This document shows, one piece after another, positions 14,026-15,177 of a stretch of DNA of 64,000 nucleotides (the first letter of the stretch is position 1; each line of letters opens with the position of its first letter). The translations under genes and the position numbers were made by a program. The notes below the pieces were generated by a model. The model saw only the letters and a list, made by a program, of their open reading frames with translations, did no database searches and was not told where the DNA came from. Where the stretch lies: NCBI RefSeq assembly GCF_003334765.1, contig NZ_QOWT01000022.1, one strand, 5' to 3'. Source of the stretch: Escherichia coli. GTDB lineage: Bacteria > Pseudomonadota > Gammaproteobacteria > Enterobacterales > Enterobacteriaceae.

Positions 14026-15102
14026 ATGGCAGTACGAAAACTCACCACTGGGAAATGGCTTTGCGAATGTTACCCCGCCGGACGAAGTGGGCGTCGTGTG
14101 CGTAAACAATTCGTCACCAAAGGCGAAGCACTGGCTTTTGAGCGCCACACGATGGAAGAAACCGAAGCAAAGCCCTGGCTGGGTGAATCAGTGGATCGTC
14201 GAACACTGAAAGACGTGGTTGAGCTATGGTTCAAACTACATGGTAAATCTCTGACAGCTGGGCAGCATGTCTATGACAAATTGCTGTTGATGGTTGACGC
14301 TCTGGGCAATCCTCTTGCAACCGATCTCACCTCTAAAATGTTTGCCCACTATCGAGATAAACGCCTGACAGGCGAGATCTACTTCAGCGAGAAATGGAAG
14401 AAAGGAGCAAGCCCGGTCACCATTAACCTGGAGCAAAGCTATCTAAGTAGTGTTTTTAGCGAACTATCCCGTCTGGGCGAATGGTCGTATCCGAACCCAC
14501 TGGAGAACATGCGAAAATTCACCATCGCAGAAAAAGAGATGGCATGGCTTACCCATGAGCAGATTGTTGAATTGCTGGCTGATTGCAAACGTCAGGACCC
14601 AATTCTGGCACTGGTAGTTAAGATATGCTTAAGCACAGGCGCACGCTGGCGTGAAGCCGTAAATCTTACCCGCTCACAGGTGACCAAATACCGAATTACC
14701 TTTGTCAGAACGAAGGGGAAGAAAAACAGAAGCATCCCTATCAGTAAAGAGCTTTACGAAGAGATCATGGCGCTTGATGGGTTCAATTTCTTCACAGACT
14801 GCTATTTTCAATTTTTATCCGTGATGGAAAAAACGTCTATCGTGCTCCCTCGCGGTCAACTCACACACGTTCTGCGCCATACGTTTGCGGCGCACTTCAT
14901 GATGTCGGGTGGAAACATTCTGGCCTTACAAAAAATTCTCGGACACCACGATATAAAAATGACTATGCGTTACGCACATCTGGCACCGGATCATCTGGAA
15001 ACGGCGCTCCGTTTCAATCCTCTGGCAACGCTGCCAAGTGGCGACAAAGTGGCGACAAAGTGGCGGCAGCGGTTGGCATTACCCCGTAATAACCACCACT
15101 GA
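14026..15102 (+). CDS. int: Tyrosine integrase (P2/186 family)
   Basis: MAVRKLTTGKW... N-terminus, CLSTGARWREA and HVLRHTFAAHFMMSGGNILALQKILGHHDIKMTMRYAHL catalytic region; GGAGGG 8 nt upstream; track ORF from 13870 is over-extended. Confidence 0.85.
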   Translation: MAVRKLTTGKWLCECYPAGRSGRRVRKQFVTKGEALAFERHTMEETEAKPWLGESVDRRTLKDVVELWFKLHGKSLTAGQHVYDKLLLMVDALGNPLATDLTSKMFAHYRDKRLTGEIYFSEKWKKGASPVTINLEQSYLSSVFSELSRLGEWSYPNPLENMRKFTIAEKEMAWLTHEQIVELLADCKRQDPILALVVKICLSTGARWREAVNLTRSQVTKYRITFVRTKGKKNRSIPISKELYEEIMALDGFNFFTDCYFQFLSVMEKTSIVLPRGQLTHVLRHTFAAHFMMSGGNILALQKILGHHDIKMTMRYAHLAPDHLETALRFNPLATLPSGDKVATKWRQRLALPRNNHH

Positions 15103-15110
15103 CCACCAAC

Positions 15111-15144
15111 CTAACTTATTGTTTTTAATCTAACTTATTGTTTT
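15111..15144 (+). repeat. Direct repeat ctaacttattgtttt x2 just downstream of int; candidate att core or arm site
   Basis: Two 15-bp copies separated by 4 nt between the int stop and the rcdA stop. Confidence 0.5.
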
Positions 15145-15149
15145 CATTA

Positions 15150-15177
15150 ACCCGTTTACATAAATGGGTTTTTTGTT
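15150..15177 (+). terminator. Hairpin plus T6 run between int and rcdA
   Basis: aacccgttt...aaatgggtt followed by TTTTTT. Confidence 0.4.

Follow-up and report, generated by a model that had tools for sequence, protein, structure and literature searches.

A probable int-proximal attachment junction of a 186-type prophage in the 3' end of the sRNA gene rybB of Escherichia coli

Positions 15036-15190 of the DNA analyzed here, a 64 kb stretch of an Escherichia coli contig hereafter named the window, very probably represent the int-proximal junction of a 186-type (Fels-2 group, P2-like) prophage located in the 3' end of rybB. One attP arm is there joined to host DNA, with integrase arm-type sites, a stretch of candidate excisionase operators, two IHF-like sites and a combined hairpin and core. 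An earlier note on this DNA had proposed an attachment-site region on the basis of four elements, namely a tandem 11-bp repeat, a 15-bp repeat with a 4-nt spacer, a hairpin with a T-run and the rcdA stop, all of which are present. The features discussed in this study are listed below with their positions in the window.

12712-12915, reverse strand: Cox/Apl-like excisionase and repressor gene (PHROG 575, "Cox-like excisionase and repressor", E = 1e-29).
14026-15102, forward strand: int, encoding a 186-type tyrosine integrase of 358 aa, with the start set by homology.
15036-15068, forward strand: three tandem 11-bp predicted Int arm-type sites, AAGTGGCGACA, AAGTGGCGACA and AAGTGGCGGCA, starting at 15036, 15047 and 15058.
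15073-15106, no strand assigned: candidate Apl/Cox-like operator region, with TTGGCA at 15073-15078 and CCAC at 15093-15096 and 15103-15106 (10 bp apart).
15111-15125, reverse strand: copy 1 of the 15-bp direct repeat, with an IHF-like AAACAATAAGTTA at 15112-15124 (one mismatch to WATCARNNNNTTR).
15130-15144, reverse strand: copy 2 of the 15-bp direct repeat, with an IHF-like AAACAATAAGTTA at 15131-15143 (one mismatch to WATCARNNNNTTR).
15149-15174, forward strand: hairpin AACCCGTTT-acat-AAATGGGTT followed by a T-run, terminator-like, at the end of the cI-int operon.
15164-15177, forward strand: common core ATGGGTTTTTTGTT, identical in attB, attL, attR and attP, consisting of the last 11 nt of RybB and 3 further nt.
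15178-15190, forward strand: host-type right half of the extended 27-bp core, ATCTAAAACTTAT here and GCCTGAAATTTAT in the phage (9/13 identical).
15194-15730, reverse strand: host gene rcdA, convergent with int and rybB (as annotated by RefSeq in loci 99-100% identical), with its stop at 15194-15196.

Beyond int, the window continues into rcdA and then into ybjJ and ybjI. The spacer between rcdA and ybjL in K-12 MG1655 contains the sRNA gene rybB, and strain VTB97584v carries a complete prophage with ogr adjoining ybjL at one end and int adjoining rcdA at the other. When the empty K-12 site, the ybjL-side prophage end of VTB97584v and the window were aligned, only ATGGGTTTTTTGTT was common to all three sequences, and a six-way alignment with further sequences confirmed this core. 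The three-way alignment also bears out the proposal that the region is an attachment site at the host-phage junction beside rcdA. To the left of the core the window is phage sequence and to the right it is host sequence; a megablast search against K-12 MG1655 gave a match at 100% identity beginning exactly at 15164. In K-12, RybB is annotated to end 20 nt away from the rcdA stop, equivalent to window position 15174; the core is therefore made up of the final 11 nt of RybB (terminator 3' arm and U-run) and 3 nt more. An Rfam scan detected full-length RybB at the ybjL-side junction of VTB97584v (positions 1-79 of 79, 105 bits). RybB was not found in the Rfam scan of the window, because only 11 nt of it are left there. 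Thus rybB is complete at the far junction as seen in VTB97584v, with its duplicated 3' end supplied by the phage.

Core homology extends imperfectly to 27 bp (to 15190), with (A/G)TGGGTTTTTTGTTGCCTGAAATTTAT in the phage versus ATGGGTTTTTTGTTATCTAAAACTTAT in K-12-type hosts. In strain 806883-9-2019 the 27 bp are perfectly duplicated, with one copy at either prophage end, and the phage-type 27-mer also occurs in empty sites of other lineages, for example SMS-3-5. The joined attP was read from the record of Klebsiella phage KP12, in which int and ogr flank the site and the order is int, arm repeats, two 13-bp repeats, hairpin/core, GTCTGAAATTTAT..., TGGCGACAAATTGGCGGCAG and ogr. Most "phage" records are excised prophage intervals ending at att; KP12 alone brings int and ogr together across the site. 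The core and attL were defined from other strains with a ~99% identical int-rcdA junction, the far end of the window prophage itself lying outside the window; a matching core at the other prophage end, for which the earlier note had suggested looking, was found in these strains. The sequences thus compared indicate a core shared by attP, attB, attL and attR, 14 bp long when perfect and 27 bp when extended.

The hairpin at 15149-15170 has 9 pairs and a loop of 4, and in a terminator scan it was followed by six T's ending at 15174. The predicted RNA fold has an energy of -9 kcal/mol (z = -3.0 relative to shuffled sequences). Phage DNA forms the 5' arm of this hairpin, and the att core provides its 3' arm and T-run. 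The earlier note had pointed out a hairpin and T-run, which are indeed there, and had treated them just as a terminator, a description that falls short since the 3' half and the T-run are at the same time the core. Related loci preserve the stem by variants with G-U or perfect pairs. The int-end junction would keep a terminator-like hairpin that closes the cI-int operon and faces the convergent rcdA, and at which termination is predicted. At the far junction, pairing of the core with the 5' arm from the host preserves the rybB terminator.

The mechanical ORF start of int is at 13870 and the homology-based start at 14026, with a TGA stop at 15100-15102. The product matched PHROG 1 (integrase, E = 2.7e-74) and shares 99% identity with phage integrases annotated in E. 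coli, 56% with the 186 integrase, 53% with that of Fels-2 and 41% with that of P2. Blocks of the catalytic region (...HVLRHTFA..., ...LGH... and ...MxYAHxAPD...) are invariant between the window Int and 186 Int. The window Int is a tyrosine recombinase homologous to 186 Int, with a conserved catalytic region. Its N-terminus carries W11/E14/Y16, the same residues as in 186 and Fels-2, where P2 has Y/D/R (aligned blocks: GKWLCECYP in the window, GGWICELYP in 186, GKWLCECYP in Fels-2 and GRYEVDIRP in P2); W/E/Y and Y/D/R distinguish the arm-binding domains of the 186 and P2 types, respectively (Nilsson et al. 2011, PMC3448106).

Upstream of int are genes for a CI-type repressor, a 67-aa Cox/Apl-like excisionase and a CII-like protein, which form the early region of a P2/186-like phage. 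The 67-aa excisionase is identical in strain VTB97584v, and its residues 1-65 are near-identical to a protein of phage KP12. This Cox/Apl-like protein (12712-12915) is expected to be the directionality factor and is predicted to act on the int-rcdA junction. The window prophage has an internal deletion that removed the lysis, capsid and terminase genes, and is a variant, defective copy devoid of capsid or lysis genes.

The tandem repeat read as gtggcgacaaa-gtggcgacaaa-gtggcggcag was located at 15038-15069, and Tandem Repeats Finder returned 15036-15065 with a period of 11, 2.7 copies, 100% matches and a score of 60. The array described in the earlier note is thus real, although the start assigned to it, 15043, falls inside the array, which begins at 15036. 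The 11-bp unit AAGTGGCG(A/G)CA fits the published arm-site consensus of 186-type integrases, tgccGCCActt (PMC3448106), the reverse complement of which, aagTGGCggca, is the window unit. It also agrees at 10/11 positions with YAYCGCCAYTY, given for the predicted Int arm-type sites in the GenBank annotation of phage 186. On the other (ogr-side) arm of attP, as read from VTB97584v and KP12, a second pair, TGGCGACAAATTGGCGGCAG, is present in non-coding DNA, so that the core would have two or more direct arm-type repeats on either side. The same tandem TGGCG sites follow closely after int in phage 186 and Fels-2, and 186 has a further set ahead of its B/ogr gene. From the last arm TGGCG to the start of the core there are 103 bp in the window, 104 bp in 186 and 102 bp in Fels-2. 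We conclude that the 11-bp tandem repeats are Int arm-type sites, which Int is predicted to bind. The motif TGGCGRCAR was matched 13 times in the window for 2.75 expected; the remaining ten matches are distant from the att region, nine being in host DNA, and seem to have no bearing on att.

The 15-bp repeats consist of two copies of ctaacttattgtttt separated by taat, the first of which begins 8 nt past the int stop; the repeat search also returned the pair as 18 nt long. No further copy of ctaacttattgtttt with 0 or 1 mismatch was found in the 64 kb window. Both copies are present in the KP12 attP and absent from the empty K-12 attB, so that a host origin, which the earlier note had proposed to check against a prophage-free site, finds no support. 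Since they contain no TGGCG motif, have no counterpart on the other attP arm and derive from the phage, the 15-bp repeats are neither the core nor Int arm sites. Of the two repeats offered as possible arm sites in the earlier note, only the 11-bp repeat, with its 186-type consensus mirrored on the other arm, keeps that role.

We moderately favor the 15-bp repeats as a pair of putative IHF sites, a view that is based on retention of the motif and on positional correspondence with other phages. The IHF-like motifs are placed as follows.

This window, reverse strand: distal motif 40-52 bp and proximal motif 21-33 bp upstream of the core start.
Phage 186, reverse strand: distal motif 41-53 bp (2 mismatches) and proximal motif 21-33 bp upstream of the core start.
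Fels-2, reverse strand: distal motif 40-52 bp and proximal motif 20-32 bp upstream of the core/annotated attP start.

The IHF DNase I footprint annotated in 186 (L008 2248-2277) spans the distal motif and only part of the proximal one (2272-2284). Among 17 distinct natural arm variants, each had exactly 81 nt from a GGCATT anchor (ending at 15080 in the window) to the AAATGG at the core start, and no length change was seen between the first arm repeat and the core. The conservation of this block in the 17 variants and its presence in an attP flanked by int and ogr argue that these features are not due to chance. The IHF-like motif was found at the fixed offsets in 16/17 and 17/17 variants, the offset of copy 2 being the one kept in all 17, and five arm variants have a perfect match to the IHF consensus at the position of copy 1. 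A forward-strand match was found in none of the 17. As a background, matches with at most one mismatch occur about 1.2 times per kb of strand in the window (152 in 128 kb). Variation was seen in 6 of 18 consensus-specified columns, 5 of 8 N positions and 26 of 55 columns elsewhere, a weak contrast, and the assignment to IHF does not rest on column variability. The mismatch in each motif falls on a well-conserved T, and the two units are copies of one another and thus do not count as two independent IHF matches.

With the two putative IHF sites 19 bp apart, their simultaneous occupancy is unlikely. A pair spaced by 19-20 bp, too close for joint occupancy and conserved in its distances from the core between this phage, 186 and Fels-2, could be read as alternative IHF positions that set integrative versus excisive bend geometries, a proposal that we regard as speculative and rather improbable.

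The main rival reading of the 15-bp direct repeats, which is also improbable, is that they are operators of the Cox/Apl-like excisionase and not IHF sites. They are direct repeats on the arm that bears the Apl sites in phage 186, and the 186 Apl block (L008 2213-2259) overlaps the distal IHF-like motif (2252-2264). However, they are 19 bp apart, whereas operators of this excisionase type are spaced by 10-11 bp (PMC7498355), and what the arm variants preserve is the pattern of the IHF consensus, CAA-N4-TT. Nor does the switch region, to which the excisionase must bind too, contain the repeat unit: a search for the 13-bp unit with up to 3 mismatches gave 31 matches in the window for 24.75 expected and none in the switch region, which led us to downgrade this reading. 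Better candidates for excisionase operators may be the CCAC blocks and TTGGCA located between the arm sites and the putative IHF sites. The two CCAC blocks (15093 and 15103) are surrounded by variable columns and are either invariant or changed by one substitution in 1/17 variants. Phage 186 has five Apl sites at the same position, between the arm sites and the IHF footprint, and GTGG-type motifs ~10 bp apart are found in the lytic/lysogenic switch region. This assignment of the operators is only tentatively suggested by the sequence.

The number of arm-site copies in the window is unusual, with three copies versus two in related loci. The extra copy is one of the two identical AAGTGGCGACA (15036-15046 or 15047-15057). 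Three copies were not found in any full-length match listed for the 1,123 complete E. coli genomes that match this segment; full-length E. coli matches had an identity of at most 91.9%, and those listed span 120-125 nt for 132-136 query positions, consistent with one 11-bp copy fewer. In IMG/VR, three copies were present in one of 125 pattern matches (IMGVR_UViG_3300045988_157682), a contig 99.97% identical to the window over 8.9 kb. The gain of 11 bp changes the end of Int from ...GDKVAAAVGITP in the common 350-aa allele to ...GDKVATKWRQRLALPRNNHH in the 358-aa protein, so that its last 16 residues are frameshifted relative to the common allele. A sequencing or assembly error is very unlikely. 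The third copy is missing from all complete E. coli genomes searched, among the matches listed, but the same three copies are found in the independently assembled metagenome-derived viral contig IMGVR_UViG_3300045988_157682, which could nevertheless stem from the same strain. The third copy most obviously arose by replication slippage. As the spacing from the last site to the core has not changed, the added site amounts to one placed on the core-distal side, and because the prophage also has an internal deletion, a neutral change in a decaying element is the simplest reading. That slippage in the arm array, by altering the number of arm sites and the Int tail together, could tune excision is even less likely than the alternative positioning of IHF. 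Neither this rare third 11-bp copy, with its frameshift of the int tail, nor the sRNA gene rybB as the target had been mentioned in the earlier note.

It is likewise highly improbable that the 11-bp repeat is merely a slippage-prone coding repeat of the int tail with no role as a DNA site. The repeat does lie inside the int ORF, both here and in most relatives (GCAACGCTGCC, the common int 3'-end, is immediately upstream in 110/125 IMG/VR matches), and slippage altered its copy number in the window. Yet strains BL21-AI, EC7 and EC21Z-137 have a small ORF between int and the repeats, their similarity to the window starting exactly at the repeats, and the copies are unchanged there although non-coding, which argues for their conservation as att DNA rather than as codons of int. 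Moreover, the second pair on the other arm is in non-coding DNA, and the match to the 186 arm consensus concerns sites that are also non-coding in 186. The Int residues encoded by the repeats are beyond the conserved ...RFNPL end and are not conserved, being missing from other alleles.

That the 15-bp or 11-bp repeats mark the att core or a duplicated host-phage junction, as the earlier note had also considered, is hardly credible: they are direct repeats, as att cores can be, and lie less than 130 bp from the junction, but both are wholly within phage DNA, occur in the joined attP of KP12 and not in the empty K-12 site, and only 15164-15177, extended to 15190, is common to attB, attL and attR. 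As candidates for the core, they were rejected on the three-way and six-way alignments.

The following mechanism can be proposed for this site. In the direction from int to rcdA, the tandem 11-bp arm sites would be contacted by the N-terminal domain of Int, with two sites in most relatives and three here by slippage duplication. The short stretch after them probably holds the excisionase operators, and would be followed by the two IHF-like sites 19 bp apart, formed by the 15-bp direct repeats. Last would come the hairpin, whose 3' arm and T-run make up the 14-bp core common with the rybB terminator and the presumed place of strand exchange. Int bound to the arm sites would be brought to the core through bending induced by IHF. 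Recombination in the core would then leave a complete rybB at the far (ybjL/ogr) end and a phage-built look-alike terminator at the int end, where it would close the cI-int operon. The predicted order at the far end is ybjL, full rybB ending in ATGGGTTTTTTGTT, GCCTGAAATTTAT..., an IHF-like AATCATGATGTTA, TGGCGACAAATTGGCGGCAG and ogr.

The arrangement resembles that of the phage 186 attP (NC_001317; Egan/Dodd laboratory), where int, TGGCG arm sites at 11-bp spacing, excisionase sites, IHF, the core and a second arm pair before ogr/B follow one another. As in 186, a structured RNA gene holds the core at its 3' end; the arm consensus and the distances of the IHF-like motifs are the same, and the arm-core distance is about 103-104 bp in both. 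Several differences were also observed. The target is rybB here and tRNA-Ile (ileY) in 186, and the perfect core is 14 bp (27 bp imperfect) here versus 36 bp in 186. The RNA-gene fragment is co-oriented with int in the window, unlike in 186, and the terminator overlaps the core, whereas it lies beyond the core in 186. The window allele lacks an orf69-like gene between int and the arm sites, so that int reads into the arm sites, and its excisionase is only distantly similar to Apl.

Fels-2 is similar in having two tandem TGGCGGCA arm sites directly after its int and a pair of TGTTTTTA-containing repeats 20 bp apart that give reverse-strand IHF-like motifs, but its core is in ssrA and its repeat units are shorter. 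The attP sites of P2 and lambda share the more general features, i.e., a heterobivalent tyrosine integrase, arm sites flanking the core, bending by IHF and a small directionality factor. The core of P2 is also 27 bp long. The P2 arm consensus, tgTGGaCa, differs from that found here (PMC3448106).

The int-rcdA junction was found at ~99% identity in 1,063 of 5,426 complete E. coli genomes. The arm region was matched in 1,123 genomes and an uninterrupted site in ~4,227; the site is occupied in ~1,100/5,426. The rybB gene is a reported hotspot (#29) for Felsduovirus prophages in E. coli (Hochhauser et al. 2023, PMC10121019), and was named as the target of a Klebsiella island in 2014 (PMC4048246). 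PhiECO1, PhiECO2, PhiECO3 and PhiSEN1 belong to the same prophage group and use the same site (Nilsson et al. 2011, PMC3448106); the published PhiECO2 interval of ATCC 8739 (3023202-3058101) holds one of the matches (H66, 3057910-3058034) and ends at the end of the 27-bp core. The window junction is a standard 186-type attachment site, and both the rybB site and the prophage group have already been published. Compared with PhiECO1/2/3, PhiSEN1 and the Felsduovirus hotspot prophages, only the rare third arm repeat with the frameshifted Int tail and the internal prophage deletion are particular to the window copy.

The repeats are explained as standard parts of the attachment site of a heterobivalent integrase. 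The paired IHF-like sites and the polymorphic 27-bp attB, on which no open question hangs, are small additions for work on P2/186 recombination or for integrase tools. The value for annotation is that the prophage boundary lies at 15164-15190 and that the target is rybB, not rcdA.

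The 186-type prophage has an internal deletion, seen at window 1-2712. Lysis, capsid, scaffold and terminase genes, which occupy about 7.4 kb in the complete related prophage of E. coli strain VTB97584v, are absent, so the window prophage is unable to make particles on its own. A tail gene is followed by a truncated portal gene and by cargo genes adjoining this remnant:

1456-2136: match to the intact relative's tail gene R
2182-2712: portal protein remnant, C-terminal half only (residues 166-341 of 343)
2734-3591, minus strand: LPO_1073/Vpar_1526 family protein
4152-6902: three co-oriented ORFs, full-length matches to PADLOC models Hp1, Hp2 and Hp3 (PDLC03004-6)

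The matches of the three ORFs to Hp1, Hp2 and Hp3, which are candidate defence models, had E-values of 1e-157 to 1e-248. VTB97584v differs in carrying a DUF262 protein in place of these cargo genes.

An ORF of 63 aa, whose start resembles a signal peptide, lies between cI and int. Its product is annotated in relatives as a YdcA family protein, and it is probably an accessory gene expressed during lysogeny. The interval between int and the 11-bp arm repeats looks like a small cargo slot, empty in the allele of the window. In phage 186, orf69 holds the position taken in relatives by their small ORFs. Differing small hypothetical ORFs sit in this interval in BL21-AI, EC7 and EC21Z-137.

Window 13646-13837: 63-aa ORF
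L006 2137-2469, L007 2228-2497 and L131 1017-1502: int-to-arm-repeat interval with a small ORF in retrieved relatives
L008 1926-2177: the same interval in phage 186

On the far arm, the 3' end of ogr contains an arm-like site in inverted orientation, with CAGGTGGCGC as its reverse complement. Its counterpart in phage 186 is ccgccacttt, which precedes tB, so the arm on the ogr/B side may contain two direct sites and one inverted site.

L002 8120-8135: inverted arm-like site, ogr 3' end
L008 2449-2460: inverted arm-like site, phage 186

Among the retrieved loci L001-L130, many IMG/VR prophage contigs have their end exactly 6 nt away from the arm-site pattern, which occupies positions 7-43. When prophages are trimmed automatically, the cut thus often falls within the attachment site, with loss of the predicted IHF sites and of the core.

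Away from the junction, in host DNA distant from the attachment site, a match to the sRNA ES036 (CssrF) was found at window 45474-45516 (41.6 bits vs an Rfam gathering score of 37.6).

The attachment site in rybB shows polymorphism among E. coli lineages.

L134 5822-5992, L132 500-615 and database hits H146-H170: loci behind the polymorphism

In some lineages, e.g. SMS-3-5 and ST648, the empty site carries the phage-type 27-mer GTGGGTTTTTTGTTGCCTGAAATTTAT of the extended att core. This 27-mer has G in place of A at one position in the stem of the RybB terminator, giving a G-U pair instead of A-U. The phage-type empty site may have been converted by repeated integration and excision, or that lineage may be the source of the phage core.
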